A model generated the notes under the pieces. The model was not told the origin of the DNA and ran no database searches. It saw only the letters and a list, made by a program, of their open reading frames with translations. A DNA stretch of 64,000 nt from a virus. Below, in pieces: positions 1,212-52,742 of the stretch. Position 1 is the stretch's first letter, and each line of letters opens with the position of its first letter. Both the position numbers and the translations under genes were made by a program. Where the stretch lies: UHGV virus genome UHGV-0134996, one strand, 5' to 3'.

Positions 1212-1228
1212 CAATTTATTAGAGCAAA
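1212..1228 (-). promoter_or_regulatory. C1-repressor operator-like 17-mer (15/17 to ATTGCTCTAATAAATTT on minus strand)
   Basis: Plus strand caatttattagagcaaa; sits between pacB stop and immI copy 1. Confidence 0.6.
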
Positions 1229-1231
1229 TAT

Positions 1232-2716
1232 TTATTCGTTAAGCCATGCAAGAGCTTCATCAACCTGCGCTTCGTCTTCGACGCTAAGCACTTCATCCTG
1301 GGGAACATAATCCGCCAGCATAGCGAAACAATATGTATCCCAATGGTCTGGTGAGTGCAGGTTGAGTTTTTTCTTCATATCCTCCTTACTCATCACCTTC
1401 CATTGACCTGCGGAGTTAATCCCTACAGGGATTTTCGACGCTTCCTCAATAGTTTCATTACCCTTATCCAGTCTCATACGACCAGATTTTACTGCCTCTG
1501 CGGCTTGAACGTTGGCATAAGCACGTTTATCAAAGTACAGGCTCTTATCTTCACGGCTATGCATCTTTTTACCCCAGCGTATACGCTGTACGGTAATACC
1601 ATAATGCTCGTACATCAGATCCGCCGTTGCTTTACCCAGGCCATCGCCGTCTATCGCTATGGTGATATTTGGGAATCGCTCAGGATTGCATTCTGCGAAA
1701 ATTTTGGCGGCAAGCTGCGTTTCTGTAACGTCTGTGTATTCCAGCATTCGATAGTTGATTACACGGCGTTTATTTCGCTGGCCGGACACCATCATGATAT
1801 TGATAACGGACTTATCCCGTCCCGTACCACCAGCAACGTCCACACATGCAAGCCAGCCCCATCCTTTTGCAATCTTGACTTTCCGCCGCGTTGCACGTTC
1901 AACCTCATCACGCCCAAGAAGGAAGCCATCCTGTGATTTAGGGAATAGGCCGCGTACCTTAATCATGTACATAGGGTTATCACGCCCGCCGTACTCCGCC
2001 AGCTTCATTTTGATAAATGCTGGCGTTACCAGCGGTGATTCCTCACTGTTAAGCGTGATCGCCGTATAAACGCCATCTGGGTTACCAGGACGCTTGGCCA
2101 GTTTATGGTGAGTATCGTAGAAATAGCCGCTTGGGCGTGTAGGCTGTGACAGTAATAAGATGCGGTTATCCTGTCCGGTAAGAGCACCGGTGATGATACC
2201 GAAAGCTCTATCACTGACACCGGAGGCTTCATCGATAATATACAGAAGATGATCTGCGTGTTCACCGGCGAGAGCTTCTTCACTTCCCAGACGAAAGCCC
2301 TTCGGTACTACAGTCCATACACCTTTACCAGTAACCTCATAGAAAGCGGTTTCTGTCAGAACAAAATAATCAGCAAGCCATGGAAAACGGCTGGTGGCAG
2401 TAGCCCAGTTTATCTTGATGTACTTGAATATACCGGTCATTACCTGCTGAATTTTGTTCGCAACGATAATGGCGCGGGCACCGGGATACATGATTATGAA
2501 CAACATGATCATGATAGAAGTCATGTCTGATTTCCCGGTACCGTGACCAGACGAAACAGATGTCTTGCTACCCTGTTCCTGCACAGACTCAATAATCAGA
2601 TCCTGCTGCCAGGTAGGTGTTTTGCCGAATAAAACATCAGCGGCCGCAATCCAGTCATAACGATATAGCGCCACCAGCTCGCGCCAACGTGGATCCGTTA
2701 CGCAACTTCTGGCCAT
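1232..2716 (-). CDS. pacB: Terminase large subunit (PacB-like)
   Basis: 494 aa; Walker A-like GHGTGKS near N-terminus; directly downstream of and overlapping pacA stop; size matches P1 PacB. Confidence 0.85.
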
Positions 2717-3909
2717 TAATCATCATCCCCGTATAGCTTGCGGGTAACTTCTTCGTCTTCCTCCTCGTCTTCGTCCAGGTCTTGTTCCAGCCATGGGTCG
2801 TTTGATACACCTTCAGTATCAACATCTCCATAACCGCCTGTATCAACGATATCGGCGATTTCTTCCCTACGCTGCTCAATCCACAATGCGGCATCGGCGC
2901 GGCGGTTGGCGGCCCGTTCTCGCGCAACTTTGTCCAGATCGTCAAGAGAAGGGCCACCGACGGCTGTTTGCCTTTCCTCATCATCGGTATTGGTCTTAGG
3001 AGCACGCAGATCGGCTTTGATTTGCTCCAGCATCAGGGGCGGCACTTTCCCGCCATGCGCCTCGATGAATTCAGCTGCTTCCAGCACTGACCAGTTATTT
3101 TCACGCTTTCGTTCGTATGCCAGCTTAACAATGCCAGCTTGCCCCATAGATAAAGCGTGCTTTTCCGCCTCCCGGCTTTCTTTTCGATAGTTATTCCGGA
3201 TGCTGTAAATGGTGTTGATCAGGCTGCTTATCTGCGCGGAACAGCTGTTTAGCATGCTCGCGATACGATATTCAGGCGGAGTCCCTTCACCATCGTCTTT
3301 TTGCTGATCGCGCATTTCCTGCACCAGACGAATACACGTATCCCTGGCGTTCTCCAGCATAAGGAGATGAGAAAGAGACTTTTCAAGAAGAGTGGTTTCC
3401 AGAACATCGGCCCCGGACCGACGCAACATAGCGCGCGCGGCCTTCCGCGCTTCAACGTTATCTATCAGGTAATCGTCAGCTTCGAATTCAAAGCGTTCAC
3501 CATCATCATCCAGGGTGTCGCGTTCCAGGCGATCACGTAAGGTCCGGTGGGCGCGGGTGATCACGTCATGATCATCAGAACGATCATTTATGCGCTTATT
3601 CTGGCGCTTCGCGTTCTCGACTGCGGCACTGACAACAGCATTAACTCTTTGTTTTTCAGCCATTTCAGCCACAATGTGATCACCTGCATGTTGATCATTA
3701 GCGTGATCAATGATCATGCTTTTTAGTGGTTTTCTGACAGGCTTATTTGGCTTACGGCTGTCCGCTGTTCCGGTGTCTTCTTTGAATGCACGGAGATAAC
3801 GACGTGCGGTGTTTGGGTTGAGATTAAACTCGGCGGCATATTGTGCGATGGTGTAACCACCATCTCGCGCCAGGCGAGCAAAATTCTTCTTGTGATCGTC
3901 CCAGGTCAC
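2716..3909 (-). CDS. pacA: Terminase small / pac-recognition subunit (PacA-like), GTG start
   Basis: 397 aa with N-terminal HTH-like segment and acidic C-terminus; AAGGAAG RBS before GTG; contains the pac-like GATC cluster. Confidence 0.75.
3557..3716. other. pac-like packaging site inside pacA: seven GATC-containing hexamers in two clusters (3 + 4)
   Basis: GATC at 3558, 3570, 3582 and 3678, 3693, 3705, 3712, mostly as TGATCA; matches the P1 pac architecture (Dam-methylation-regulated). Confidence 0.7.
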
Positions 3910-3995
3910 TTATGCTTCCTTTCGTATAAAACTCTTTTTGACGCGAGGGTAACGAAAGTCACATGTCAAAAGGCCCGGAACGGGCAAGCAATCAA

Positions 3996-4448
3996 TCAGA
4001 TACGTGCGGATGTGGCATTACCGTAATGACGGTGCTGACGGACCACCTTATTGAAAAGTTGACGCGCCATCACCCAAGGCTGGTGCTCCCGGCGTTCCTT
4101 TTCGTCCTGCGTCATATAGAGTTCGTTCTGGAGTTTTTCATCAAACCGGCGCGGAGCGCGGCTGCGGCGAAAGAATTCAGGATTCAGAGAGTGGATCTGA
4201 AATCTACGTGGGCGTGTACTGTCATCAATCAAAACAGACGAATACTTAGACACAGCGATAGCCTTTAAGCGCAGATAAACATCGCGCTTATCGACATCCA
4301 GATGCGGGTATTCCTTTTCAAGAATTGCTGCGAGTTCTTTCGCTGATAGAAGAGATTTAGTGCGGATCATGTAATCCGCAATCTCGTACGATGTTATTCG
4401 TGAGTGATTTATTTCCATGAAGTGGCGTCCCTGCCAGTTAAGTAACAT
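3996..4448 (-). CDS. lpa: Lpa-like protein (late-promoter activator position), HTH-like segment
   Basis: 150 aa; AGGTGA RBS; located between pdcB-like and pacA as lpa is in P1; preceded by operator-like site; assignment by position and size. Confidence 0.45.
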   Translation of the reverse strand: MLLNWQGRHFMEINHSRITSYEIADYMIRTKSLLSAKELAAILEKEYPHLDVDKRDVYLRLKAIAVSKYSSVLIDDSTRPRRFQIHSLNPEFFRRSRAPRRFDEKLQNELYMTQDEKERREHQPWVMARQLFNKVVRQHRHYGNATSARI

Positions 4449-4518
4449 CCTGTCACCTACTGATTAGCCCATGTCAACTAATCAACGTGGAATATAATAC
4501 CCTCGATTAAAGAAATAG

Positions 4519-4535
4519 CAATACATTAGAGCAAT
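4519..4535 (-). promoter_or_regulatory. C1 operator-like 17-mer (14/17)
   Basis: Plus strand caatacattagagcaat upstream of lpa-like gene. Confidence 0.5.
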
Positions 4536-4536
4536 T

Positions 4537-5580: not shown

Positions 5581-5607
5581 ATCACACCTTTCATCACTGA
5601 TTGGGCT

Positions 5608-5808
5608 TTATCTGCTGCCCGGCATTCTCTGTTTAAGCACAACCATTTCCTGACGGCATAACACAGCAATAGCGGTCCTGGCACCAATTTGCTTACCAAC
5701 CAGGTATTGCTTTACCTCGCGGCGACTCACGCCATCAAGAAGCATCTTTAACGCTTCACGGGACAATTTGTTGTATTTACGTGCCATTAATCTACTCCGC
5801 GGAACCAT
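5608..5808 (-). CDS. Small basic protein (PdcA position), possible DNA-binding
   Basis: 66 aa ORF downstream of doc. Confidence 0.35.
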
Positions 5809-6393: not shown

Positions 6394-6414
6394 AAACACC
6401 TCATGTACTCGTTA

Positions 6415-6855: not shown

Positions 6856-6873
6856 AGCGTTTTACCTCAATGA

Positions 6874-6893: not shown

Positions 6894-6978
6894 TACATTG
6901 AAAAGGCATAGTTTGTGAAAGCGGGGTTTGTAGGCGCGCCACGCTGGGGGCTAATCACATTTCTCCCCCATCTTGCCG

Positions 6979-7230
6979 TTATTTTTTTGGTGCATCCTCG
7001 TTCTGATACACCGGATCGCTCCCTTTTGGCAACTGGAGGCTTAACTGCCGGTAGTGCCGTAGCCGTTCCATGAAATAGGCGCGCAGGTTTTCCGGTTGCT
7101 CACGGGCCACCTGCTCTGCAATCACAGGTATATTCAGCCGTTCTTTGTAAGCAACGCCGCTGGCGGCAAGGTCTACGTTCACCTTGTCTCGCTCTTCCTG
7201 GCTTTTAGCTGCTATATTTCGATCTGACAC
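6979..7230 (-). CDS. hot: Hot, homologue of DNA polymerase III theta subunit (HolE-like)
   Basis: 83 aa; [43 protein letters not shown] aligns with E. coli HolE. Confidence 0.8.
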
Positions 7231-7262
7231 AAGAAACCTCCAGGAGTTAGTGGATCAGGCAC

Positions 7263-7613
7263 ATGCACAATAACGTTCTCAATGTTAGCCGTTCAATTCA
7301 GACAATCAGAGACTGCACCAGTGTGGTGGCATCAATCCCGTTGCGGAACAGCATAGACGAACTGCAAATTCGTGTATTGAATCCGAATCAGGCTAATAAG
7401 CAATTGCGCTTTATTTTGACGCTGAAAAGTGAAACAGAGGGGATAAAGCACAGAGTAAAAGTGTTTTCTGAGGCCATTCTGCTTAATGGGAAGCTCCGGC
7501 ATCTGGTAAGGCCAGAACGTCAATATCCTGACGTCCTGGCGCGTGAAAAAGACCTTCTTTCTGAAGTTCAGGATAGGGTGATCGATTTCGTCAAATGCTA
7601 TCCCCTGCATTGA
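7263..7613 (+). CDS. Hypothetical protein (isolated plus-strand ORF; may be non-coding)
   Basis: 116 aa ORF, weak RBS, overlaps a minus-strand ORF. Confidence 0.2.
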   Translation: MHNNVLNVSRSIQTIRDCTSVVASIPLRNSIDELQIRVLNPNQANKQLRFILTLKSETEGIKHRVKVFSEAILLNGKLRHLVRPERQYPDVLAREKDLLSEVQDRVIDFVKCYPLH

Positions 7614-7882
7614 GGGCAGGTGTTCCCTTCCGCAAAGTAGGGAAAATTGCTATCAAGTTCATCACACCATCTGCGATGGTCGTAGCACCAAAACGCCTCC
7701 CACGGTGCACGGAAATACTTCATCCACCAGGACACTCGATCAGGTATATCTGCTGGTGGCAGTTCTTCTGGCAATAATTTGCCTGATAATTCCCTTTCCG
7801 CCCGCGACAGCATTTTTTTGAGGCTCGCGTTCTCTTTTTCAAGCTCATCTACGCGCACCTGTAATTCAGCTTTCGTTGGCAT
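7598..7882 (-). CDS. Hypothetical protein, Trp/Cys-rich C-terminus
   Basis: Start at MPTKAEL within 7598-7963 ORF. Confidence 0.35.
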   Translation of the reverse strand: MPTKAELQVRVDELEKENASLKKMLSRAERELSGKLLPEELPPADIPDRVSWWMKYFRAPWEAFWCYDHRRWCDELDSNFPYFAEGNTCPQCRG

Positions 7883-8546
7883 GGTCCACCTCATGCTTTT
7901 CAGCCACCAGCGGCAATAAAGCCCTGGCCATCTTATGAACCAATAGTGCATCAATAATGCCAAGCGTATGCCCCGGCTTAATGTTTAATGCCGCCTCAAG
8001 GCGACACCTTTCCAGGCCACTTTTCTCGGCTTGTTTATGATGATCTGGTGTAATAACGTCGCCCAAAACACGGCTAATTCTTTCTCGTAATTGCTGGGTG
8101 CCAGCACACTTGATCGCTGTATCGTGGAGACGGTTAACCAGTTCGCGATAAACATGCGGCTTAATTCGGATACGTTCACCGGTGACGCCCTTTCCTGGTG
8201 CTGGCACCGAACTATCCGGAATATCCGGATAGTTGCCAGCCTCGTAAGCTACCCGCAGCCAGTGCATGAATGTTTCAGTGGACACACAACCACAGTCCAC
8301 ATCGATTTTCCCGCGTTGCTGTTCCAGCCAATGCTCAAAATTCAATCTACACGTATTACTTTCATGTTGCTCTTTTTGTCTCAAGGCCAGCACCTGTTGG
8401 GCCAGTTCCAGAACGATACCGGGTGACGCTAACCTCTCAAATTCCAATAAATAGTTTGCGTCAGGATGACAAGTAGCCTCGCCTGCAAAAAATACCAATT
8501 GCTGTAAGTATGCTGTCGTTAGAGTAGTCATTTCTTTTTGCGCCAT
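7866..8546 (-). CDS. Hypothetical protein (island early-region gene)
   Basis: 226 aa ORF in minus-strand operon. Confidence 0.4.
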   Translation of the reverse strand: MAQKEMTTLTTAYLQQLVFFAGEATCHPDANYLLEFERLASPGIVLELAQQVLALRQKEQHESNTCRLNFEHWLEQQRGKIDVDCGCVSTETFMHWLRVAYEAGNYPDIPDSSVPAPGKGVTGERIRIKPHVYRELVNRLHDTAIKCAGTQQLRERISRVLGDVITPDHHKQAEKSGLERCRLEAALNIKPGHTLGIIDALLVHKMARALLPLVAEKHEVDHANES

Positions 8547-8902
8547 TTCTTTTCACATTCCTTAGTCCATTTTTCAATGTTCATTTTGGCAATATCAGTC
8601 ATTCCATCACCTAAGAAATACTTTTTCCGGTACGTCTTGCACTTAAACCACACTACAACAGCCACCAGCCAGAAAATAAAAGGCCATACGGCAATACCAA
8701 CTCCAGCCGCGATAAAGCCCAATATCCATAAATGAAGCTCTCCAACTTCTGTTTCCGGCAATATTCTTAAAGAATTAAACAGCAGGCTGAACGAATGGTC
8801 GTATGCATTGGCAGTATAAGACATGCAATCCATATAATTAAAGTCATAGCCTGCGGCTGCCGCCCATAATGGGCGGTCAAGAAAATGTTTTAGTGTCATC
8901 AT
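8528..8902 (-). CDS. Hypothetical membrane protein
   Basis: 124 aa, hydrophobic segments LWILGFIAAGVGIAVWPFIFWLVAVVVWF, basic C-terminus. Confidence 0.4.
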   Translation of the reverse strand: MMTLKHFLDRPLWAAAAGYDFNYMDCMSYTANAYDHSFSLLFNSLRILPETEVGELHLWILGFIAAGVGIAVWPFIFWLVAVVVWFKCKTYRKKYFLGDGMTDIAKMNIEKWTKECEKKWRKKK

Positions 8903-8908
8903 ATTAAT

Positions 8909-9202
8909 TTAAGGTTCAGACCAGTTATCTTCAATAGCAATGCTTAATCTTTGTAGCCATTCTGCTAATTTCAGCATTGCTTCTCTTTCGCTTAAACCAC
9001 ACGGAAAATCATCAAGCGATATTGTTGGCTTGAAGTTTCCCAAATTATCCATTTCAACGGTCAGATTTTGCTCCAGAACGGTATTTCTTACACGGCTATT
9101 GTGCCGAAGCAAATATACTGAACGTGATTTATTGGTTTTGTGGTCGAACGTATATTCGGTAAGTATCATCTGACTTCCTCCATGATTATTACCGCGCCAC
9201 AT
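8909..9202 (-). CDS. Hypothetical protein
   Basis: 97 aa ORF. Confidence 0.35.
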   Translation of the reverse strand: MWRGNNHGGSQMILTEYTFDHKTNKSRSVYLLRHNSRVRNTVLEQNLTVEMDNLGNFKPTISLDDFPCGLSEREAMLKLAEWLQRLSIAIEDNWSEP

Positions 9203-9225
9203 AATTACTCCGTGTTAATTGAAAT

Positions 9226-9528
9226 TTAGCTATTAATCTTCACTTTTATCGCGAACACCTTTACCGGTTTATCACCGAAGTGTGGTTGTGTGATTGTTTT
9301 TATTTCATATCCGTTATACGGGACGTCAATTCTGCGACTGAAGTCTTTGCGCTTCGGATATCCCTTTGTGATAATCAGGCGGTAATACTTACGGTTAACG
9401 AGGCGCTTATTCCAGTAGTCATTACACAGGCGATACTCTTCCGTTTTCTCCCCGCGAATCATGGCATCGAAGTATTCACCTTTAACGGCAAGTTGCAGGT
9501 TAGCCATTACCTCACCTCCAGTCTCCAT
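9226..9528 (-). CDS. ASCH/PUA-like small protein (DUF3850-like)
   Basis: 100 aa; LQLAVKGEYFDAMIRGEKTEEYR pattern. Confidence 0.4.
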   Translation of the reverse strand: METGGEVMANLQLAVKGEYFDAMIRGEKTEEYRLCNDYWNKRLVNRKYYRLIITKGYPKRKDFSRRIDVPYNGYEIKTITQPHFGDKPVKVFAIKVKINS

Positions 9529-9770
9529 ACCGCCTGACCAATCCGGCTGGCATGGGTATCTTTGGATACTGTTCCGTCTTTAGCCAGCTCCATAAGAATT
9601 TTGCGCAAATCTGCCGAACGCCATTCTTCATCAGGAAATGCCTTCTCCATTGCCAACCGCAGATTCCAGGTTGCCATCCTGAATGGATATTCCCCGCCGA
9701 GAGCTTTATCTTGCAGGGCAGCCCGGGAACGCATCACCTGCAAAACCTTCTCTTTTACATCCATCATTTC
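9507..9770 (-). CDS. Hypothetical protein
   Basis: Start chosen at internal MMDVKEK to limit overlap with upstream gene. Confidence 0.3.
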   Translation of the reverse strand, partial: EMMDVKEKVLQVMRSRAALQDKALGGEYPFRMATWNLRLAMEKAFPDEEWRSADLRKILMELAKDGTVSKDTHASRIGQAVWRLEVR

Positions 9771-10621
9771 GCCTCCTGCGGCGGTTCTGGTAGCGGCATC
9801 CAGAACAAGGCGTTCCCTAACCACGATAAAGTGCCGTCGCTCAACTCCACGTATTCCCCTTGTACCTGTCCTGCCATATACTCGCCGTGCTTTGAATAAA
9901 TTAAAATCCAATCATCTTGAGGGGGCATTCGCTCACTACAGCTTATCCAACCATCCGGAGTTACCGGAGAGTTGCCTGCCAGTCTACGCAAAACAGCCTT
10001 AACAGCCTCAATACGGTCATCATCGTAACTTTCCGCCGTATCTATGCGGTCGAGCATGATGATTGCGTTATCAATATCAGGATTGCCGGTCCACTCATTA
10101 CCGCGATTGGATTCGGCAGCCTGGTTGCCGCGTACTGGTTGATTGTCGGCTTTACCCAGTCTGTCGTCGCTGCATGAATGCCCTTCCAGCCAGGCCAATG
10201 CTTGTCGCATGAAATACGCAATATGTTTGCCGTGGTAATCGTCTTCATCGATGTGAAAAGCGATACTACGAATGTATTCAATTGCGTTTTCAATGGCCTC
10301 TAACGCTATCGGCGCTGGCGGAGTGGTATATAGTTTTCGACATTTGTATATCCAACCGGCATGGTCAGGCGTGTCTGTAAAACGCAAATCGTCTTCGTAG
10401 CACTCACGACTACGTTCTTTCCATTCCGTCCACGGAACACCGCTATTCCAGGTGGGGCGAGTGCAGGACTGATACAGAACAGGCTCTGCTTCCAGCGATG
10501 CCAGCACGATACGCGCCAGTTCTTCCGCTTCTTCTGCTGGCAGTACAACGTTGCTATCAGGTCCGTATGTTTCGCGCCACTGCTTGATTGTCAGCAGTCG
10601 CTCTTTGGTAATAGTGATCAT
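9764..10621 (-). CDS. DUF551-like protein (lambdoid ea-type)
   Basis: 285 aa; C-terminal W...SCSERMPP...W pattern. Confidence 0.45.
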   Translation of the reverse strand: MITITKERLLTIKQWRETYGPDSNVVLPAEEAEELARIVLASLEAEPVLYQSCTRPTWNSGVPWTEWKERSRECYEDDLRFTDTPDHAGWIYKCRKLYTTPPAPIALEAIENAIEYIRSIAFHIDEDDYHGKHIAYFMRQALAWLEGHSCSDDRLGKADNQPVRGNQAAESNRGNEWTGNPDIDNAIIMLDRIDTAESYDDDRIEAVKAVLRRLAGNSPVTPDGWISCSERMPPQDDWILIYSKHGEYMAGQVQGEYVELSDGTLSWLGNALFWMPLPEPPQEAK

Positions 10622-11133
10622 GCCGCGTTTCCTTCTTTCTTATTAACAATTACACCGTCATATATTTCATTAAGGTGCCCTCTCAACTCCATGCGCCTTA
10701 ATGCAGATAACATGTAATCGCATTCAACCTGCTTATTCCCAATAAAAGGTTTATCTTCAGGGTTACCCCAACAGCAATTACCCTTGGGCCACCCATGTAC
10801 TTTCCGTACTCTTCCGTTAACAACGTGAAGTAATCCCCAGCCAGGTGGTAAATCCTCAATTGAAATAATTCCCGGCTCACTAATAAAGAATCGCCAGTCG
10901 CCCATTCCAAGAGACGGATTTTTACGAAAACGCTTTTTTCTATCTGCCAACAAATCAGCACGAGAACACTTCGCCTCTATCAGGCATGATGCTGAATTTC
11001 TGAACCCCATAGCATCTGGCTGTTCTCCGGTACTGGTTACAGCTATAAAGCGGTCATGAAAACAAACCTTGAACCCGTTGCGCTTAAGGAACTTGTACGC
11101 AATCTGACAGAGTTCGCGGTGTGTTAACGCCAT
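10618..11133 (-). CDS. PD-(D/E)XK-type nuclease-like protein
   Basis: Start MALTHREL; D...EAK motif (DAMGFRNSASCLIEAKCSRAD). Confidence 0.4.
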   Translation of the reverse strand: MALTHRELCQIAYKFLKRNGFKVCFHDRFIAVTSTGEQPDAMGFRNSASCLIEAKCSRADLLADRKKRFRKNPSLGMGDWRFFISEPGIISIEDLPPGWGLLHVVNGRVRKVHGWPKGNCCWGNPEDKPFIGNKQVECDYMLSALRRMELRGHLNEIYDGVIVNKKEGNAA

Positions 11134-11134
11134 A

Positions 11135-11323
11135 TCACTCTCCTTTAGTGCGCAAATGGTTTTTCCAGCGGTTTTGCGCCGCGCTGGGCTTTTTGCAAAA
11201 ACCACAATCCATCATCCCGTAATATTTCATCAACCCCATCCGTCGGTTGCTGAGTCTCACCCACTGCCAGACGCCAGGAGCGTTTCTACGAACTAACAGA
11301 ATCTTTGCTTTACGGTTTTTCAT
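11135..11323 (-). CDS. Small protein, MKNRKAK paralogue B (62 aa)
   Basis: ATGA-coupled to upstream paralogue. Confidence 0.3.
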   Translation of the reverse strand: MKNRKAKILLVRRNAPGVWQWVRLSNRRMGLMKYYGMMDCGFCKKPSAAQNRWKNHLRTKGE

Positions 11324-11496
11324 CTTACTGCGTACCCTTTCTTCCGCCTGTTCTGTGACGCAGTAGGCTTACGCTTTGCGGCAAAAGCCACCTGACCAAA
11401 TGGATGGAGTACCGCTATCTTATGGTTGCTAATAACCAGCTCCACCACACGCACAGGTCGCTGTAAAAAAAGTCGTTTTGCCTTACGGTTTTTCAT
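11320..11496 (-). CDS. Small protein, MKNRKAK paralogue A (58 aa)
   Basis: Same first 7 codons as 11135-11323; ATGA overlaps on both sides. Confidence 0.3.
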   Translation of the reverse strand: MKNRKAKRLFLQRPVRVVELVISNHKIAVLHPFGQVAFAAKRKPTASQNRRKKGYAVR

Positions 11497-11588
11497 CGCT
11501 TTGCTCTCCTGCGTCTCTTTGCTGCTCGTCGTGCCGCTGCAATACCGGTATGGCGGCGCTTTGGTGCCGGGATGATGTTGTCAGCCAT
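11493..11588 (-). CDS. Arg-rich 31-aa peptide
   Basis: MADNIIPAPKRRHTGIAAARRAAKRRRRAKR; stop overlaps next ATG. Confidence 0.2.
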   Translation of the reverse strand: MADNIIPAPKRRHTGIAAARRAAKRRRRAKR

Positions 11589-11668
11589 CAGGACATGTGG
11601 CTTTGCAATTAGCGCAGAAGCCCAAAAACGAGTCGGGTACGGTAACAAGCCGATACATGCCACACGCA

Positions 11669-12424
11669 CTACTCACCTCCGTTGATGCGAATGCCAGCGG
11701 CACGGGAATCATTCCATCGCTTTACTTCTTCACGAATTACGTCAATGCATTCTTTCGAATCCATTAGGTAATCTTCATCAAAAAGCCTTTCCTGTTCGTT
11801 TTCTATCGCAACAATGATTGCTTCAACTAACTTTTGTGCCTGAGAACCACTTTCTAACTCTGCAATGCGCTTCTCTGCGGCTTCCAGCTTCTCGCGCATA
11901 TCGTCAACGTACTCGACCAGAGATCCGCCAGCAGGAATTTCGCACTCCTCGACCAGTTGGAAGTAGATATCAGCTGCGGCCCGTGTGTTGCTATGCCTAG
12001 CGTCGCCCATCTCACCTTCACGAAGAGCATCGCGTTCGGCGGTAAGATTGGCTATTTTGCTGTCTTTGCCTTCCAGCTCAACGCGAAGCCTCCCTACCGT
12101 TAGCGCAATTTCCTCGTTCTCCTGGTCACGGCGTTTGATGTATTGCTGGTTTCTTTCCAGTTCATCCAGTAATGCCGTCACGGTAGCTGGATTGGCTGCG
12201 GCGATGAATTCAGCATTGGCCTGCTGTTCTATTTGGAAATCTTCATCGAAACCGCTTTCAGGATGCGCTCCTTCAATTCTGCAAATGGGAATATATCCAG
12301 CAACCTCGCGATGAATTAGTGCATCATCACCATCAAATCGTCCCTCTCCATATTCGAGCGACCACACACCACACGTTGCTTTCTCTGCCTTTTCACGCAG
12401 TGCCTGATAGTCAATCTTGCTCAC
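11669..12424 (-). CDS. Ea22-like family protein (coiled coil)
   Basis: N-terminus MSKIDYQALREKAEKAT typical of lambdoid Ea22-like proteins. Confidence 0.6.
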   Translation of the reverse strand: MSKIDYQALREKAEKATCGVWSLEYGEGRFDGDDALIHREVAGYIPICRIEGAHPESGFDEDFQIEQQANAEFIAAANPATVTALLDELERNQQYIKRRDQENEEIALTVGRLRVELEGKDSKIANLTAERDALREGEMGDARHSNTRAAADIYFQLVEECEIPAGGSLVEYVDDMREKLEAAEKRIAELESGSQAQKLVEAIIVAIENEQERLFDEDYLMDSKECIDVIREEVKRWNDSRAAGIRINGGE

Positions 12425-13155
12425 TGGTTGCCTCCTTTGCGAAGCTGGGCAGCAAAGTCAACTAACCACTCAGTCATTTCAACCTTCCCTACCAGGTCTG
12501 AACCAGGGTGCATACAGCAATCACTCTGCGCCGCTTTGAAATCCTTATACTCATATTCTTGGGCCACCAGATTTTTTGCAGCTTCTATAGCAGCATCCAC
12601 CCCCTGCGCCCGGACTTCAGCCAAGAAAGCGTCGGTGGCTGACATATTTCCTGTTGCCTTCATGGCCTTCAAAATAACCAGAACGCCATCTCGCCCAACC
12701 ACCTCAGCGATAACCTCGGTGTTGTCGCCAACAACATCGCAGAATGCCTGAACTGCCTTACGAGCCAGCTCATTCTCCACTGCCAGCGCCGTGCGATTAC
12801 CCTCCAGCTCTGCAATGCGCTGTTTTGCGGCATCCAGTTCAATCGACAATTTTTCCAACTGCTCTTGATGCTTCTTGTATTCCTGATATGCGTGCCAAGA
12901 CTGACCTTTGCGCACACTATCAGTGATATCAGTAATCTGTTCTGGTGTTAGCGTGGTCAGTGGCTGTGATGGGAAAATAAGCACTTTCCCGGAATCCCAA
13001 TCAAAACCAGCGTGAATTGACTGAACCTCAACTGAAGGTGTTGAACCAATGCTGCCAGGCGAATGAACAACGATTGTTACATCCATATCGCGACGATGGC
13101 TGTGGTTGTTGGACAAAATACGATTCACCAACTCAGAAAATTTGGAAATTTTCAT
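12421..13155 (-). CDS. Ea22-related mosaic protein (shares C-terminal module with 13439-14149)
   Basis: C-terminal ATDAFLAEVRAQG...RKGGNQ parallels ATDAFLAEIRAEA...IRKGSSQ. Confidence 0.45.
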   Translation of the reverse strand: MKISKFSELVNRILSNNHSHRRDMDVTIVVHSPGSIGSTPSVEVQSIHAGFDWDSGKVLIFPSQPLTTLTPEQITDITDSVRKGQSWHAYQEYKKHQEQLEKLSIELDAAKQRIAELEGNRTALAVENELARKAVQAFCDVVGDNTEVIAEVVGRDGVLVILKAMKATGNMSATDAFLAEVRAQGVDAAIEAAKNLVAQEYEYKDFKAAQSDCCMHPGSDLVGKVEMTEWLVDFAAQLRKGGNQ

Positions 13156-13475
13156 GCTGATTCCCCTTTCTCTGCTCTCTCCTGTCGGAACATCACTATC
13201 ATCAGGTCGCCTTTTGTCGCTATCCTGGCTGTTGTACCTGGTTCAATGCGGCTAAGCTCAAATGCGTCATAGAACGCTTCTAATGCCTTCTGGCGTAGTT
13301 CCTGTTTGCGCCGTTTTTTCCACTGTTTTAGGAAAATGGAACCCAGCCATCGCCATGTGCGGGACATGATGTAAAGCCAACCGAGAAGTGCCAGACCGGT
13401 ATTTAGGAGCGTATCGATCGTTATTGTCGTGTCGATATTCACTGGCTGCTTCCTTTGCGAATCTGTTCCGCCCAT
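13152..13475 (-). CDS. Small membrane protein
   Basis: 107 aa, hydrophobic segment LNTGLALLGWLYIM. Confidence 0.3.
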   Translation of the reverse strand: MGGTDSQRKQPVNIDTTITIDTLLNTGLALLGWLYIMSRTWRWLGSIFLKQWKKRRKQELRQKALEAFYDAFELSRIEPGTTARIATKGDLMIVMFRQERAEKGESA

Positions 13476-14149
13476 TCTTCAAGGGATTTCTCCGCATATT
13501 CACCAGACAGGCCATCAATCGGATGCGCTTCATTAGCCAACTCTTCTTTCGCTGACAAAATCATGCGTGTAACGTCGAAAACTTCACGCAAAGACTTATT
13601 GATAAATCCGTGATTGAACGCAGCAGCAAGACGGCTGGCGGTATAGTTAATCCCCTCGTTGCGTGCTTCCGCACGAATTTCAGCCAGAAAAGCATCGGTA
13701 GCTGGAGTTTCGCTGTGGTGCAGGGCATCGTTGATAATCATTGCAGCAACTCCGGCCTGCCCTGCATCCGTGACCGACACATGATCAAGAGTTACAGCCA
13801 TTGCGAGTTTCAGCCCGGCGTTCTCTGCCACCAGAGCCGCGAGCTTAGTCTCAAGCGGTGCTATTCGGCACATAGCATCAATATTTGTGTCCTCCAGGCG
13901 CTTAATTTCGCCCAGGAGTGCCAGCGCAACTTTTGGTGGGATAGCCGCGATATAACGGGCATTAGCACCAGCATTCCTTTGCCCATCAATGCCAGGCCAG
14001 TCAATAAAGTATCCGCAATGCCTACCCTCAGACGTGCGCGCAGGATAAATGCCGTTATGACCCGGCAAAATATATGCTACCCATTCATCTTGCGTTGCCT
14101 GTTCCGCCGCCTCGCGCAGTTCTTGATAGTCAATTGTCATTCTCGCCAT
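13439..14149 (-). CDS. Ea22-like family protein
   Basis: N-terminus MARMTIDYQELREAAEQAT. Confidence 0.6.
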   Translation of the reverse strand: MARMTIDYQELREAAEQATQDEWVAYILPGHNGIYPARTSEGRHCGYFIDWPGIDGQRNAGANARYIAAIPPKVALALLGEIKRLEDTNIDAMCRIAPLETKLAALVAENAGLKLAMAVTLDHVSVTDAGQAGVAAMIINDALHHSETPATDAFLAEIRAEARNEGINYTASRLAAAFNHGFINKSLREVFDVTRMILSAKEELANEAHPIDGLSGEYAEKSLEEWAEQIRKGSSQ

Positions 14150-14781
14150 CCTTCACAGTTGTAATCACGACAGCCTTCAAAATCATATGGGCTGTACTGC
14201 CAGGTGATTTTTCCGCAATGCGGACAATTCCAACGCACCTTCCCGCTTCGCGACTTCTTTCTTCTGTTCTGCTTTTTCAACCAGTCAGGCATGATCAAAC
14301 CTGCGCCCTGAACCATTGTTCTGCGGTTAAAGTTATTGATATTGAACGTCCGGCGCTTTGCTGCATCAGCAATGGAAAATGGCAACCAAACTATTCCTGG
14401 TTCGTTTTTGTTGGCGACGCTAAAGATGGTCGCTTTACTGAAGTCATCTGTTGGCAATCCACCGTGTTGAAGCCAGTAAACATCGTTGCCGTTCCAGCTA
14501 CCTTTTTTGTAGGCCACATACGCAGTGCAATCTGACTCAATCAGGCTTTCTGTAGGGATGTACTGGCAATCAACGTGCCACACAGCCATTGCATCCACAC
14601 TATCGGCACAAACAGGCTGATCGATATCTCGCCCACAATTCCAGGCTTTTTGGGCTTCTTCCAGCGTGTAAACATGAGCGCGATCGATATCAGAACTGTA
14701 ACCATTGCCGTTATGGCAATGGAATGAGGCGTTATTACCCACAGTTTCACGCAAGCACATCATGTAAAAACGGTTACTCAC
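14137..14781 (-). CDS. Hypothetical protein with C-terminal zinc-ribbon-like Cys cluster
   Basis: 214 aa; RWNCPHCGKITW...CRDYNCEGW. Confidence 0.4.
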   Translation of the reverse strand: MSNRFYMMCLRETVGNNASFHCHNGNGYSSDIDRAHVYTLEEAQKAWNCGRDIDQPVCADSVDAMAVWHVDCQYIPTESLIESDCTAYVAYKKGSWNGNDVYWLQHGGLPTDDFSKATIFSVANKNEPGIVWLPFSIADAAKRRTFNINNFNRRTMVQGAGLIMPDWLKKQNRRKKSRSGKVRWNCPHCGKITWQYSPYDFEGCRDYNCEGWRE

Positions 14782-14989
14782 TGGATGCCTCCCAGCAAAT
14801 TTGTCTTATATAAGAACTGTTAACGCGCTTTACTTTCCCGTCGAACTCCAGTTTCTTTAGACGACGCAAAACGTATGCCGTTTTGAGTGTGCGATATTTA
14901 TCCCTAAGCCAGTTGGTCACGACGTAAGTCATACAGCGCCCGTGTTCTTCCAACACCCGAACTATTTCTTCGTCGGTTGGCTTGCTCAT
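14774..14989 (-). CDS. Small protein, possible winged-helix DNA-binding
   Basis: 71 aa. Confidence 0.3.
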   Translation of the reverse strand: MSKPTDEEIVRVLEEHGRCMTYVVTNWLRDKYRTLKTAYVLRRLKKLEFDGKVKRVNSSYIRQICWEASSE

Positions 14990-15207
14990 TTTGTCGCTCC
15001 TTCAGCTTTCTCTACTTTCGCTGCCATGATTTCCAGCTTTTGTGCTGCCGATGCCGCTAACCTGTGAAATTCTTCATCTGTTTCAACTGGAATTGGTACA
15101 AACCTGACACCAATTTGAGCAAGGCTATGCGCCATTTCGAGACTTGCTCTTAACTCTGCTGGGGATGCTTTATTCAGGCCGACTTCCTCACAAATAACTG
15201 ATTGCAT
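14986..15207 (-). CDS. Small hypothetical protein
   Basis: 73 aa. Confidence 0.3.
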   Translation of the reverse strand: MQSVICEEVGLNKASPAELRASLEMAHSLAQIGVRFVPIPVETDEEFHRLAASAAQKLEIMAAKVEKAEGATK

Positions 15208-15216
15208 ACGCTCGCC

Positions 15217-15942
15217 CTACTGAATACGCTCAAACTCGATTACCCAAACCCAGGGATTAGCGCTCCAGCTTTCTTCGCCGTAGATGGATTCCCACAGGCG
15301 CTGGAACGCAACCTTGGCCATTGCGAAATCCCCCTTGGGAGTAAGGAATGTTCCCGGGTGATCAGGAAGCAAACTTCCAGCAGGCGGAACACCCTCATCC
15401 CTTGCATCGCATTCGCTGATATCGTTCAACCGCTCAACGCGCACGTTGGTAATTTCCACCAGGATGCGTGATGCCCATCGCGGCATGTGAATTGATGGAC
15501 GCCACCCACCATCAAACTTTTCATTCACAGTGTGAGGTTTCCAGTCGGCATCATCGGGTATCGACCATAAACCGTAATCACCAGGCTTTTGCTCACAACT
15601 GGCCCGATAAATCCTTGCTGCGTTCTTCTCATCGCCACGACAAAGGTTGTCGTTCCAGTCCACACTGCAACCATCTTCATTGCCTAATATCGCCCATGTT
15701 TCACGAACCCAAATTCGATCGCCGACGATACCAAAGGGGCAATTGAAAACACTGCTTACACCATCAGCCCCGTACCACTGAAAACCTGCACCAATTTTTC
15801 TAATCATCACTGGTGCTTCTGGACCAACTTCCGCAGGCTGATTTTTCATTATCCGCCGCGTCTGCGTTTTCCTTCCTTCGAGGATGGCTCGGACCATCTC
15901 ATCGTTGAAAATCATGCCGCGCTCTTTCACTTCGCCTTTCAT
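15217..15942 (-). CDS. Hypothetical protein, ASCH-like N-terminus
   Basis: 241 aa; MIFNDEMVRAILEGRKTQTRR; an upstream 28-codon hydrophobic ORF at ~15950-16036 may be coupled. Confidence 0.45.
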   Translation of the reverse strand: MKGEVKERGMIFNDEMVRAILEGRKTQTRRIMKNQPAEVGPEAPVMIRKIGAGFQWYGADGVSSVFNCPFGIVGDRIWVRETWAILGNEDGCSVDWNDNLCRGDEKNAARIYRASCEQKPGDYGLWSIPDDADWKPHTVNEKFDGGWRPSIHMPRWASRILVEITNVRVERLNDISECDARDEGVPPAGSLLPDHPGTFLTPKGDFAMAKVAFQRLWESIYGEESWSANPWVWVIEFERIQ

Positions 15943-16120
15943 GCATCCCCCTTACCCATGCGCGACGATGCCGCCAAAAGTGATAGAGAACAGCCAGAAA
16001 TAGATCGCGGCCATAATGATTTTGAATGCCGTGTTCATATTTTCAGCTCCTGTGATTGATTGGATACATGCCGCGCCTTGCGGCATGTTTTTATTTTCAC
16101 TTTCTCTGTTTTAAAAATCA

Positions 16121-16137
16121 AGATTTATTAGAGCAAT
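16121..16137 (-). promoter_or_regulatory. C1 operator-like 17-mer (16/17)
   Basis: Plus strand agatttattagagcaat; overlaps stop codon of HAD gene. Confidence 0.65.
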
Positions 16138-18213: not shown

Positions 18214-18230
18214 ATTGCTCTAATAAAAAA
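18214..18230 (+). promoter_or_regulatory. C1 operator-like 17-mer, inverted orientation (14/17)
   Basis: attgctctaataaaaaa on plus strand. Confidence 0.45.
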
Positions 18231-18262: not shown

Positions 18263-18279
18263 GGAATTATTAGAGCAAT
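18263..18279 (-). promoter_or_regulatory. C1 operator-like 17-mer (14/17)
   Basis: Plus strand ggaattattagagcaat. Confidence 0.5.
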
Positions 18280-47567: not shown

Positions 47568-47578
47568 AAGGATTTTAT

Positions 47579-48088: not shown

Positions 48089-48107
48089 GAGTCATCCCTT
48101 GTATTTT

Positions 48108-48133
48108 AAAGCTCCTTCGGGAGCTTTTTTATT
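48108..48133 (+). terminator. Intrinsic terminator with UUCG loop
   Basis: aaagctcc-ttcg-ggagcttt + TTTTTT. Confidence 0.8.
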
Positions 48134-48203
48134 TGGAGAGGAAAGGGTGCATTGAGGATACCTGACACACGAAGAGTGGCGGGATCTCTCCCCGCCAGGT
48201 CTC

Positions 48204-48359
48204 TTACCTTTCAGATTCGTAGGCTGTGAAGACAGTGACCTCCGTCTGGCTGGTTCGGATTCGTACCTCGCAGAGGTCTTTCCTCGTTACCAGTGCCGTC
48301 ACAATGACGGTTAAACAGATGACGATCAGAGCGATTAATATCGCTTTTTGCTGCTTCAT
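48204..48359 (-). CDS. hok: Hok/Gef-family type I toxin
   Basis: 51 aa MKQQKAILIALIVICLTVIVTALVTRKDLCEVRIRTSQTEVTVFTAYESER; close to Gef/Hok. Confidence 0.85.
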   Translation of the reverse strand: MKQQKAILIALIVICLTVIVTALVTRKDLCEVRIRTSQTEVTVFTAYESER

Positions 48360-48417
48360 AGCCTGCTTCTCCTTGACCTTTTGGTCGGTAAGAGGCTAAT
48401 CTACGTATGCTAAGCAT
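48211..48417 (-). CDS. mok: Mok-like overlapping reading frame
   Basis: 68-codon ORF overlapping hok in another frame. Confidence 0.5.
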   Translation of the reverse strand: MLSIRRLASYRPKGQGEAGYEAAKSDINRSDRHLFNRHCDGTGNEERPLRGTNPNQPDGGHCLHSLRI

Positions 48418-48540
48418 AGATATGGCCTCAGATTAATGTTAAGCGTCTTGCAGGACGCGTAATGTTATCTGGGGCTTTCTTCTATCTGCTTTTCGGGTAA
48501 TGCCTGAAGCAGATAGCCTCAAGCACCCGCAACGATTGTA

Positions 48541-48786
48541 TCAATGTCTGGCTTTTTTTCTATAGAAATCACCTGGAAGGGTGAATATCCACATCAGAAG
48601 AAATGTTGCAGCAAACATGATCCCTAATGGCCAGACCGCGCCAAAGAAAATCCATACTAAGATCTCCTCTGCTCGTTCTTTGCGGTCGATATCGACAAGC
48701 ATTTTTCGGCTGATCATGTATACACAGAAGCCAATACAAACATATCCTGCAAAAGCGATCGCTAACTGTAAAAAATCAGATTGCAT
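48541..48786 (-). CDS. Small membrane protein (rlfA position)
   Basis: Two hydrophobic helices; start chosen at MQSDF. Confidence 0.35.
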   Translation of the reverse strand: MQSDFLQLAIAFAGYVCIGFCVYMISRKMLVDIDRKERAEEILVWIFFGAVWPLGIMFAATFLLMWIFTLPGDFYRKKARH

Positions 48787-48836
48787 CTCCGACCTCAAAC
48801 TGAAAACGCCAGGTGACTCCAGATTAGAGCAATCTA

Positions 48837-49682: not shown

Positions 49683-49711
49683 TACAATGCTGGTGGTTCT
49701 TACTACGTCTG

Positions 49712-50512
49712 TTAGCGCGTTGCCGCGACAGGTACCAGCACACCAGCATCAAGCAATCGCTTCATCAGCCACTGCTGACCTTTGCCGGTTATACGAGTCG
49801 TGAAAGAAATCCTGCTTCCATTGCTTGTATCGATCACGGTTTCTTTAAGGGTGAAATACCCACGGGATATGTATTCTTGTTTGGGGACGTTCCTGCGTTC
49901 ACCGGTTGCGATCAGAATTCCGTTATCACGCAACCAGGTGAAGAGATAGTTTTGGCCCAGGCCGAGCACTTTGGCATAGTTGCCGATTAGAACCCCGCTG
50001 GCGGTAGCAACGCGTTCGGCGAATTCGACTTTAGGTGCATCCATCAGCATTTTTTGCTCCAGCCGTTGCTTTTGCTCTGCCAGGTCAGCAGCCAAACGGA
50101 GAGCTTCTGGGAGGCTCTTCGGAATAGCAGGTTGTAATCTTCCGGCTCGATAGTCGATAAATGTCTGGTTTACCTTCAGCCGAAACGCGGGAGAAATCCA
50201 GCCTGCGTACTCCACTGCGAGCAATTCATGGGCAAAAGTGCCGCCGCCACGGCCTTCGAACGAAACTATGCAATTCTGCATAGTTTCTTTTTCAAGCTCT
50301 TCGATGAGCTGTTTTGCTGACAGCGTTCTTAGCCATTGAGCTGGCGCTTTATGGGCACCGAGTCCGCTCGCTCTGTGTAGAGCATTAAGGTTGTAACGGC
50401 CAGCGCGGTCGGTCGTAATTTCAACACCACAAATAACGGGCAGAGTGGTTGAAGGATCGACATTTTGATGAAGGTTTGATATATTCATATCCGCATTGAA
50501 TGTTTGTTGCAT
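49712..50512 (-). CDS. kilA: KilA-like protein (KilA-N domain + Ant-type C-terminal domain)
   Basis: 266 aa; C-terminal half parallels Ant C-terminus. Confidence 0.65.
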   Translation of the reverse strand: MQQTFNADMNISNLHQNVDPSTTLPVICGVEITTDRAGRYNLNALHRASGLGAHKAPAQWLRTLSAKQLIEELEKETMQNCIVSFEGRGGGTFAHELLAVEYAGWISPAFRLKVNQTFIDYRAGRLQPAIPKSLPEALRLAADLAEQKQRLEQKMLMDAPKVEFAERVATASGVLIGNYAKVLGLGQNYLFTWLRDNGILIATGERRNVPKQEYISRGYFTLKETVIDTSNGSRISFTTRITGKGQQWLMKRLLDAGVLVPVAATR

Positions 50513-50581
50513 TTTTTCTCCAAATTTGCATCAACCTTCAATCACCAGCTCGAAATGGTGATTCTTTGCACTCAGAAAACA

Positions 50582-50598
50582 AAATTTATTAGAGCAAA
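50582..50598 (-). promoter_or_regulatory. C1 operator-like 17-mer (16/17)
   Basis: Plus strand aaatttattagagcaaa, ~70 bp upstream of kilA start. Confidence 0.65.
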
Positions 50599-50706
50599 TT
50601 TTTCCAGTCCGATCCAGATCGGGTTGGTCGATCTGCTCAGAAACCTGTCAGTTCGCTGGCAGGTTTTTTTGTATAAGGCGTTTTTCAATGTGGATTTGTG
50701 GCTGGC

Positions 50707-50741
50707 TAAAACGAAAAAGGCCACAGGTTTTACCCTGTGGC
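50707..50741 (-). terminator. Intrinsic terminator on minus strand
   Basis: ggccacagg-gtaaaac-cctgtggcc then UUUUUCGUUUU on minus strand. Confidence 0.6.
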
Positions 50742-51152
50742 CTGTTCGGGCGCAACGCGCTGCTGTTACACTGCGGAACTAACGCCCTCCAATGTTGTTA
50801 TGCAATGTGGAGAAGTGAGGCAATCACTGATGCCAACACAGAACTTGACGCTCCGATGATGACAGGAACAATGATGTTGGTCACAATCCACTTGCAAGCT
50901 TTTTGAAGAGTCATTACGAAGCTCCGCACACTTGCAACAGCAACTGCTTGCGGCTATCCTCTTGTTGATCAGACATAAGGAATGCCCTCGCTGGTTGCCT
51001 CCATGCAACGTTGTGGCGAGGGTTTTTTCTGTCTGGAGGCTACGCATCCAGGAGTTCATAACCCCCGCATAACGTTGCGCCTCCCCTGAAAAACAGGGTT
51101 GGGCATATCGTACACATGCCTGTAATTTATGGCAAATCTTGGTCTGAATACG

Positions 51153-52193
51153 TTAAGACAAGGACGCCACTGGTTTTAACAAGCCAGCATCAAGTAGCTT
51201 GCGAGTCAACCACTGCTGGCCTTTACCCGTTAATTGGGGCGTCAGCCGTATCTGGTAGCCATTTTCATCATCCAGCACCACTTCTTTCACCGTGAAATAC
51301 CCGGCGTTGATGTACTGTTGGCGCGGTACGTTTTTGCGCGCACCAAAAGCCATGAGAATGCCGTTCTGGCGCAACCATGAGAAAAGGGCGTTTTGCTTAA
51401 GTCCAACGACCTTTGCAAAGTTCCCGATCAGGATTCCATTAGCCACTGATACCCGGTCGGCAAAATCGACTTTAGGGGCTGCGGCCACCAGCTGTTGTTC
51501 CAGCTGCATTTTCTGTTCTGCCAACTCGGCAGCCAGGCGTAGAGCTTCTGGTAATGTTTGGGGGATCGATGGGGCAGGGGAGTTTGCCTGCTGCAATTCT
51601 TCCAGTTTGTCGATCAGCGAACGGCGGACCGCTTTTGACTCGCGCGCGGCGACTCGCAGGGCTTGTTTGAAAGTCATGGTTATGACAAGCATTGATGTTT
51701 TGTTCATTTTTTCCACTACACTTTTTGTGTAGTGCTCACCATCAAGCTCATCGAGTATTTTTTCGATGAATTTGTTGTTCCGAACCTCTGGTTCCCCACA
51801 TAACTTACGCGCTTCATTGACCATCTTTAACAGTGTCAGGCTGTCGATTGTGTCTCCGGTGTTGGAGATAACATGCACTGCTGGTGATGGCGTAGCTGAA
51901 GCAACAGGTGCTGGTTTTTCAACATTCAAATTATTACCGGTCATTCTGCGCGCCTCCTTTCTCATTTCTGCTGCCACTGTTGCGTAACGTAGACGTCCTT
52001 GTTCAATCAAATAATCCCTGATCTCGGCTATCAGTAGCCTGTTGATCACAGCCTTATCTGTTCGGGTATAAAAACGTCTGGTTATCATGAAATAGTTGGC
52101 AATTGCGCCGGGGATCTCCCGTGTCGGCATACAGGTTGTATGCAAAGCGATCGCTTCGGCTATTTCATTACGGGTGACGAGAGGTGTTTTCAT
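51153..52193 (-). CDS. ant: Antirepressor Ant (copy 2, complete)
   Basis: 346 aa; C-terminal Ant/KilAC-type domain; ATGA-coupled to icd. Confidence 0.8.
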   Translation of the reverse strand: MKTPLVTRNEIAEAIALHTTCMPTREIPGAIANYFMITRRFYTRTDKAVINRLLIAEIRDYLIEQGRLRYATVAAEMRKEARRMTGNNLNVEKPAPVASATPSPAVHVISNTGDTIDSLTLLKMVNEARKLCGEPEVRNNKFIEKILDELDGEHYTKSVVEKMNKTSMLVITMTFKQALRVAARESKAVRRSLIDKLEELQQANSPAPSIPQTLPEALRLAAELAEQKMQLEQQLVAAAPKVDFADRVSVANGILIGNFAKVVGLKQNALFSWLRQNGILMAFGARKNVPRQQYINAGYFTVKEVVLDDENGYQIRLTPQLTGKGQQWLTRKLLDAGLLKPVASLS

Positions 52194-52411
52194 AAACCCC
52201 CCTGAACGTTGGCAGAGAAGGGGAGGCTCCAGTAACTAAGTGAATTGCGCGAGTCAGTTGAAAAACGGGCAGTAAAAATGCAGGGGCCATCAGGCAATTG
52301 AGAGCGTGCTTCGTCTTCAGTTGCTGCGATAACGAAGTGATAGTGGTGTTTTTTACAGGAATAGAAACGCCAGATGAATTCTGGGCGTGCGCAAGGATTG
52401 GCATTAACCAT
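52190..52411 (-). CDS. icd: Icd-like small protein (Ash family), copy 2
   Basis: 73 aa; GAGG RBS. Confidence 0.65.
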   Translation of the reverse strand: MVNANPCARPEFIWRFYSCKKHHYHFVIAATEDEARSQLPDGPCIFTARFSTDSRNSLSYWSLPFSANVQGGL

Positions 52412-52640
52412 AGTTACGGCCTCACAATCAGGTTTAACAACCTGCTACCCGCTGCTAAACAGGTGGCAGGACGTGACGGGGTTAGCAGACTGGCGATTGT
52501 GAAACCAGCAGGCCGAAGCCTCCCCATCACGCCCCACCATAATTTGGGCGTAACGCGGTTTTACGGACACAAAAATACCGCAATATCGGATATCTGCGGC
52601 TGTCCGCACAATCATTCAGGCTGCTAAACCCGGTCGCAGA
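52412..52640 (-). ncRNA. Candidate c4-like antisense RNA / immI leader (copy 2)
   Basis: UUCG hairpin at 52510-52521; inverted GCTAACCCCG / CGGGTAGC pairs; boundaries not determined. Confidence 0.35.
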
Positions 52641-52725
52641 ATTTGCTACGACGGCGGAACTATAAGCCTGAACGATTAAAAGGTCAATATGATGCGAAAA
52701 GATAGCATTCGCGACTTAAAAATAC

Positions 52726-52742
52726 AAATCTATTAGAGCATT
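52726..52742 (-). promoter_or_regulatory. C1 operator-like 17-mer (15/17)
   Basis: Plus strand aaatctattagagcatt upstream of c4-icd-ant. Confidence 0.55.

Follow-up and report, generated by a model that had tools for sequence, protein, structure and literature searches.

Operator-like 17-mers in the window

The window analysed here is the whole 64,000-nucleotide stretch of the virus genome UHGV-0134996, and all coordinates are window positions unless another record is named. It carries dispersed copies of an asymmetric 17-mer, which the initial annotation had taken for operators of the C1 repressor of phage P1. Judged by its alignments, the window comes from an ordinary E. coli plasmid prophage of the P1-like (Punavirus) kind. 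Megablast returned P1 (AF234172/NC_005856), RCS47, JL22 and P7 at 97-98% identity over the backbone, as well as more than 1000 plasmids of E. coli, Klebsiella and Salmonella, and the matches in collections of plasmids and complete E. coli genomes were mosaics at 95-99% identity. Full BLAST mapping placed the window in reverse orientation relative to P1 and collinear with it from approximately 93206 down to 37153 of the P1 record, with mosaic replacements at 1-1232, 6903-15247, 37969-40231, 48130-48823 and 52978-54021. For comparisons at the level of the whole replicon we used two relatives as stand-ins, NZ_CP103764.1, which is identical (100%) to the window over 30000-38000 but not elsewhere, and p3_LB858871. 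The thirteen sites are given below under the names of their P1 counterparts, with the number of bases identical to P1 in the 17-mer and in the 60 bp on each side, and, for two of them, the score in the matrix scan described further on.

1212-1228, minus strand: Oc4-like predicted C1 operator TTTGCTCTAATAAATTG, 21.5 bits; first element of a second immI-like module, located between pacB and c1; no P1 counterpart
4519-4535, minus strand: Olpa/Op94, operator of the late-promoter activator gene lpa (open reading frame 3996-4448), over the -35 element of Plpa in the P1 annotation; 17/17 with P1 89904-89920; flanks 56/60 and 60/60
16121-16137, minus strand: OpmgT/Op88, operator of the pmgT operon; 17/17 with P1 84293-84309; flanks 55/60 and 59/60
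18214-18230, plus strand: OpmgRb/Op86b, inverted partner downstream of PpmgR; 17/17 with P1 82201-82217; flanks 60/60 and 60/60
18263-18279, minus strand: OpmgRa/Op86a, over the -35 element of PpmgR (pmgR-pmgS-pap operon); 17/17 with P1 82152-82168; flanks 60/60 and 60/60
20980-20996, plus strand: Oppp/Op83, 19.2 bits; 16/17 with P1 79435-79451; flanks 51/60 and 53/60
21887-21903, plus strand: O26/Op82, in the divergent gene 26/pmgL control region; 17/17 with P1 78528-78544; flanks 60/60 and 60/60
31937-31964, both strands: Obanab/Op72ab, bivalent, made of Obanb (31937-31953, plus) and Obana (31948-31964, minus); each 17/17 with P1 68667-68694
35629-35645, minus strand: Odmt/Op68, operator of uhr-hrdC-dmt; 17/17 with P1 65145-65161; flanks 58/60 and 60/60
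48817-48833, minus strand: remnant of Orlf/Op55, reading ATTGCTCTAATCTGGAG; 12/17 with P1; flanks 57/60 upstream and 15/60 downstream
50582-50598, minus strand: OrepL/Op53, over the -10 element of PkilA (kilA-repL lytic replicon); 17/17 with P1 49810-49826; flanks 53/60 and 58/60
52726-52742, minus strand: Oc4/Op51, operator of the primary immI operon (c4-icd-ant); 16/17 with P1 48140-48156; flanks 55/60 and 60/60

A search of the whole window for ATTGCTCTAATAAATTT with up to three mismatches returned 11 matches, against 0.33 expected, and none of 100 dinucleotide-preserving shuffles reached 11. The sole perfect copy is the one at 31948-31964 on the minus strand. The eleven coordinates and strands of the initial annotation were all confirmed by the motif search; the sites it listed are real, but it had overlooked two more, both on the plus strand, Op83 at 20980-20996 (TATGCACTAATTAATTT) and Op72b at 31937-31953 (ATTACACTAATAAATTT). 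We then scanned the window with a position weight matrix built from the 20 C1 operators annotated in the P1 GenBank record, and independent of the window. The scores were bimodal: twelve sites lay at 19.2-27.4 bits, none fell between 13 and 19 bits, and the background tail reached at most 12.9 bits. In 200 second-order Markov simulations the mean was 0.98 matches of at least 13 bits per window. A site of 12.9 bits at 27767, at the ban/dbn junction, was rejected, as it falls in this noise range. By the same matrix, no extra operators were found in the non-P1 segments 6903-15247, 37969-40231 and 52978-54021, where the best scores, 10.7-11.0 bits, are background.

Matches of this kind could arise by chance or from base composition, for example from AT-rich promoter-like sequence to which no specific protein binds. 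The motif is indeed AT-rich and lies in AT-rich intergenic DNA, and one simulation gave a single match of 21.7 bits, the highest score in any of the 200. Against this stand the shuffles, the twelve sites of at least 19 bits where about one of at least 13 bits is expected, the GC-containing core TGCTCTAAT, which is invariant or nearly invariant among the sites, and the one-to-one correspondence with annotated P1 operators. Chance origin is thus excluded by statistics and orthology together; this explanation is already refuted, and we give it practically no weight.

Correspondence with the C1 operators of P1

The P1 record AF234172 annotates 20 operators as 'phage repressor C1' sites together with their promoters, the -35 and -10 elements lying over or beside each operator, and its Op72a (Obana) is exactly ATTGCTCTAATAAATTT. 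The same asymmetric 17-bp consensus, ATTGCTCTAATAAATTT, has been published, with 22 operators dispersed over the P1 genome (PMC8546580), so that the consensus given in the initial annotation was right. Twelve of the thirteen sites (the twelve full ones and the truncated site at 48817, less the site at 1212) are positional orthologues of annotated P1 operators, nine of them identical over all 17 bases, two at 16/17 and Op55 at 12/17. Apart from the stretch downstream of Op55, the 60-bp sequences on either side of the operators match P1 at 85-100%, and at 88-100% in the flanks with promoter elements, so that the annotated -35 and -10 elements over or beside the operators are retained. With Op55 excluded, 2 of 187 operator positions are substituted, compared with 52 of 1320 in the operators' own flanks (one-sided Fisher P=0.027), which lends modest support to the view that the operators are under constraint. 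Set beside the P1 series (Op2a/b, 21, 51, 53, 55, 68, 72a/b, 82, 83, 86a/b, 88, 94 and 99a-e, renamed Oref to Oc1e in AF234172), the window has the same consensus, positions, overlapping promoters and controlled operons. The differences are a mosaic junction that truncates Op55, a single base in each of Op51 and Op83, and one extra site, at 1212. The halves of Op72ab are inverted 17-mers that overlap by 6 bp, identical to Obanab of P1; this operator belongs to the tRNA-tciA-ban operon, whose tRNA genes lie at 31207-31279, 31129-31201 and 29426-29498, all on the minus strand. The assignment of sites to the immI, lpa, tRNA-ban, uhr-hrdC-dmt and kilA-repL operons, made from the letters of the window, matches the P1 operator annotation.

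The placement of the sites between genes was evident as well. In a crude model of the open reading frames of the window, which is 87% coding, nine of the thirteen sites lay wholly outside the frames (P=4e-6). The remaining overlaps involved either short frames without a counterpart among the annotated P1 genes or the final bases of the preceding gene (dmt at 31948, pap at 16121). The greedy model had put short non-P1 frames over 35629, 48817 and 50582, and there the P1 gene annotation was used instead. In that annotation each orthologous operator is either intergenic or covers just the final few bases of the gene before it. A matrix scan of the whole annotated replicon of NZ_CP103764.1 gave 19 sites of at least 18.6 bits; 15 had no base in a listed coding sequence and none was wholly inside one, in a record that is 87% coding sequence (P=1e-10). 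The initial annotation had named two findings that would count against it, a 17-mer no more frequent between genes than within them and a P1 consensus other than the one it gave; the scan of NZ_CP103764.1 and the P1 record speak against both. Its statement that every copy is intergenic and faces a downstream operon holds in its first half but not in its second, as the plus-strand site at 18214, like those at 20980 and 31937, is an inverted partner site that does not face the controlled operon.

The window starts within an ant-like gene, and the relatives that share this end (p3_LB858871, NZ_CP103764.1, RCS47 and JL22) carry there the rest of ant, then c1 on the opposite strand, coi with the Oc1a-e operators, and cre. 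In close relatives, p3_LB858871 for example, c1 is found 0.4-1.3 kb left of window position 1. The close relatives have an intact c1 (WP_000611664.1) adjoining the second ant gene, the one cut by the window edge, and at the c1 position RCS47 is annotated with a C1 repressor and JL22 with a C1.100-like protein. By analogy with these relatives, a repressor encoded outside the window, as initially proposed, is consistent with the data. A placement of c1 inside the window, which had followed from an assumed rotation of NZ_CP103764.1, was rejected by the BLAST mapping.

A regulon of dispersed C1 operators has been defined biochemically in phage P1, in which C1, bound to the individual asymmetric 17-bp sites, shuts off the sigma-70 promoters lying over or next to them. 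We consider it highly probable (roughly 0.93) that the 17-mers of the window are C1 repressor operators, forming the dispersed immunity regulon of P1 in a P1-like plasmid prophage. In this regulon C1, with Lxc as its helper and Coi and Ant as its antagonists, would bind the asymmetric operators and occlude the overlapping sigma-70 promoters; its gene would lie a short way beyond the left edge of the window, as it does in the close relatives. In the lysogen, the antirepressor operon or operons would be kept off through Op51 and its paralogue at 1212, the lytic replicon kilA-repL through Op53, dmt through Op68, the tRNA-ban helicase operon through the bivalent Op72ab, the late-gene activator lpa through Op94, and several early pmg operons through Op82, Op83, Op86a/b and Op88.

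Alternatively, the sites might be conserved relics: the element would then be a defective or cryptic P1-like plasmid whose c1 is missing or inactive, and the regulon would have ceased to work. The c1 gene does not lie within the window, and P1-like plasmids with deleted modules are described (PMC6906374). This is nevertheless very unlikely, for all close relatives have the intact c1 beside the second ant gene, C1 or a C1.100-like protein is annotated also in RCS47 and JL22, and the operators are better conserved than their flanks. Moreover, loss of c1 with an intact regulon would hardly be stable, since kilA, repL and ant would then be expressed and P1 KilA can kill the host (note in the P1 GenBank record).

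Several points weigh against the assignment of the sites to a working C1 regulon. C1 binding and repression at these predicted sites are projected from P1 and its relatives, as are the presence and integrity of c1, which lies outside the window. The 48817 site, at 5.5 bits, may not bind C1. At 1212, a scan for the sigma-70 consensus called no minus-strand match at its threshold, the P51b-like promoter there being too weak for it. Finally, co-transcription from PpmgT of a 7-kb insert in the pmgT operon is deduced from gene orientation and from the absence of promoter-like matches.

The initial annotation had correctly rediscovered the immunity regulon that textbooks describe for P1, which is already known and adds nothing new to C1 biology. 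Its use is mainly one of annotation, as the window is identified as a P1/P7-type plasmid prophage to which the immunity regulon can be transferred from P1 with confidence.

Outside the window, a strong operator-like site was seen between cre and c8. In P1 it reads ATTGCTATAATTATTTG (1485-1501, 18.1 bits) and is missing from the C1 operators annotated in the GenBank record; in two relatives (records L003, 9916-9932, and L005, 515-531) it scores 18.6-18.9 bits. A site of 16.8 bits inside darB (P1 17166-17182) is likewise unannotated as a C1 operator.

The extra site at 1212 and the truncated Op55

The site at 1212 lies 4 bp from the stop codon of pacB (open reading frame 1232-2716). An alignment to P1 immI pairs it with Oc4/Op51, its paralogue, and the two are placed alike with respect to the C4 leader. 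Downstream of it, on the minus strand, lie the following parts of a second immI-like module:

1060-1137, minus strand: isrK-like leader (Rfam RF01394, 60.8 bits)
947-1034, minus strand: C4-like antisense RNA (Rfam RF01695, 75.9 bits; gathering score 45)
671-892, minus strand: icd-like open reading frame (NCBIfam NF033153, Icd-like, E=2e-13)
674 to beyond the window start, minus strand: ant-like open reading frame, which overlaps the stop of the icd-like frame

The body of the module (600-1137) is 75% identical in DNA to icd-ant1 of P1. Pfam gave no match for the icd-like frame or for the truncated ant-like frame, and NCBIfam none for the 224 N-terminal residues of the latter, whose C-terminal KilAC domain lies off the window. 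In the alignment to P1 immI a P51b-like promoter, TTGAGG-17-TATCAG, is in register, and the promoter predicted at 1212 is drawn only from this alignment to P1 P51b. In the C4-like RNA, the loop AGGCCAA pairs with TTGGCCT (a1) in an exact 7-mer search; by inspection, TTGGTCT (a2) also pairs with this loop, with one G.U pair needed, and CCTTGGAC of the C4-like RNA pairs with GTCTAAGG at b1 and b2, with one G.U pair each. The a1/b1-like sites lie upstream, and the a2/b2-like sites lie over the icd ribosome-binding site, with b2 over the Shine-Dalgarno sequence AAGGAGG. The primary module has other loop and target sequences.

That RCS47-type P1-like elements carry an additional antirepressor insertion between pacB and c1 has already been noted (PMC6906374). 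The module of the window shares its location and gene content (two short open reading frames and ant) and is 86-96% identical to the insertions of RCS47, JL22 and vB_EcoM-673R5. The published note, in its available text, and the record annotations give only the open reading frames and mention neither a C1 operator nor an isrK-like leader, nor a C4-like RNA of separate target specificity. A literature search of incomplete coverage for a second ant module found only the insertion itself and no description of an operator or C4 RNA in it. The regulatory layout of the module is the only modestly new detail of the analysis. The operator is kept at 17/17 in RCS47, JL22, NZ_CP103764.1 and p3_LB858871, while the module alleles are only 86-88% identical overall. 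The a1/b1 stretch varies among the insertion alleles (RCS47, JL22 and p3_LB858871) while the operator is kept, and the allele of the window differs from those of RCS47 and JL22.

The 1212 site would place the second antirepressor module under C1 control. We raise only tentatively, as the less likely case, that this module is a fully wired, independent antirepressor switch with its own C1 operator, an isrK-like leader and a C4-like RNA whose loop and target specificity sets it apart from the primary, P7-type module and from other alleles of the insertion. If so, a single P1-like prophage would have two heteroimmune antisense-RNA locks on two antirepressors, both gated by C1, and its superinfection immunity and its induction behaviour could widen or change.

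The second departure from P1 is the site at 48817. The initial annotation had called 48817-48833 a weaker half-site; its coordinates and strand were correct and the site is indeed partial, and its identity can now be given as that of Op55, cut after an 11-nucleotide core at a mosaic junction. The core ATTGCTCTAAT is intact, whereas the six nucleotides at the 3′ end are replaced by unrelated sequence, and the matrix gives 19.0 bits for the core against 5.5 bits for the site as a whole. Homology to P1 stops at 48823, inside Op55. The adjoining non-P1 segment (48130-48823) replaces rlfA/rlfB and contains a match to the sok RNA (RF01794, 114.9 bits, 48354-48528), which suggests that it holds a hok/sok-type addiction module.

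For these two sites alone, it may be asked whether they are operators at all: the 1212 site could be a passenger copy carried by the inserted module, and the 48817 site a dead half-site. No consensus promoter was called at 1212, and five of the six 3′ positions are lost at 48817, with the low overall score. However, the score of 21.5 bits at 1212 is within the range of proven operators, the 17-mer is unchanged in alleles that diverge elsewhere, and its position matches that of Op51. At 48817, the P1 version of Op55 itself already has five mismatches, all in the 3′ part, and because of this the functionality of either version is uncertain. On balance we regard non-functional copies as unlikely.

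The primary immunity region and the pmg operons

The C4 RNA of the primary immI operon (52459-52544, minus strand; RF01695 and RF03163 matches) has, in a side-by-side reading by eye, the same 77-nucleotide sequence as that of P7 and not that of P1, and each of the four a/b targets carries compensatory changes relative to P1 that fit the P7-type C4. The P7 record likewise annotates Op(c4), but Op51 of the window (AATGCTCTAATAGATTT) is nearer to that of P1 (AATGCTCTAATAAATTT) than to that of P7 (TCTGCTCTAATAAATTT). By these comparisons the primary immunity region is a P1/P7 mosaic, in a backbone that is mostly P1-like.

Two operons that the initial annotation had placed on islands proved to be P1 backbone operons, pmgT (Op88) and pmgR-pmgS-pap (Op86a/b), and only pmgT has a non-P1 insert. 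This 7-kb insert (8247-15247) lies inside pmgT/pmgU, downstream of Op88. Its open reading frames are all on the minus strand, tightly packed and co-oriented with the pmgT operon, and encode accessory functions of lambdoid type (two Ead/Ea22-like genes, one DUF4752 gene, one DUF551 gene and several frames without a Pfam match). No promoter-like site was found on the minus strand between approximately 8500 and 16100. Given the gene orientation and the lack of promoter-like matches, it is plausible that the insert is read from the C1-controlled promoter PpmgT, under Op88, and would also be silenced, in which case non-P1 accessory genes (Ead/Ea22, DUF4752, DUF551) sit in a C1-controlled operon. 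The insert falls in the pap-lxr interval, a published variable region of P1-like plasmids (RD-5, PMC6906374), and NZ_CP103764.1 has a type I restriction-modification system in the same pmgT/pmgU hotspot. The leader that separates Op88 from pmgT contains a perfect GC-rich hairpin of 10 bp (ACATGCCGCGCCTTGCGGCATGT, 16066-16088), which is conserved in P1; a T-run follows it on the plus strand, which makes it terminator-like.

The segment 37969-40231, for which megablast gave no match in P1, is a plasmid replication region unlike repA/incA of that phage. The window is matched there by NZ_CP103764.1, a record that lists a RepB-family initiator and a GIY-YIG nuclease in this stretch and whose PLSDB type is IncHI1B.

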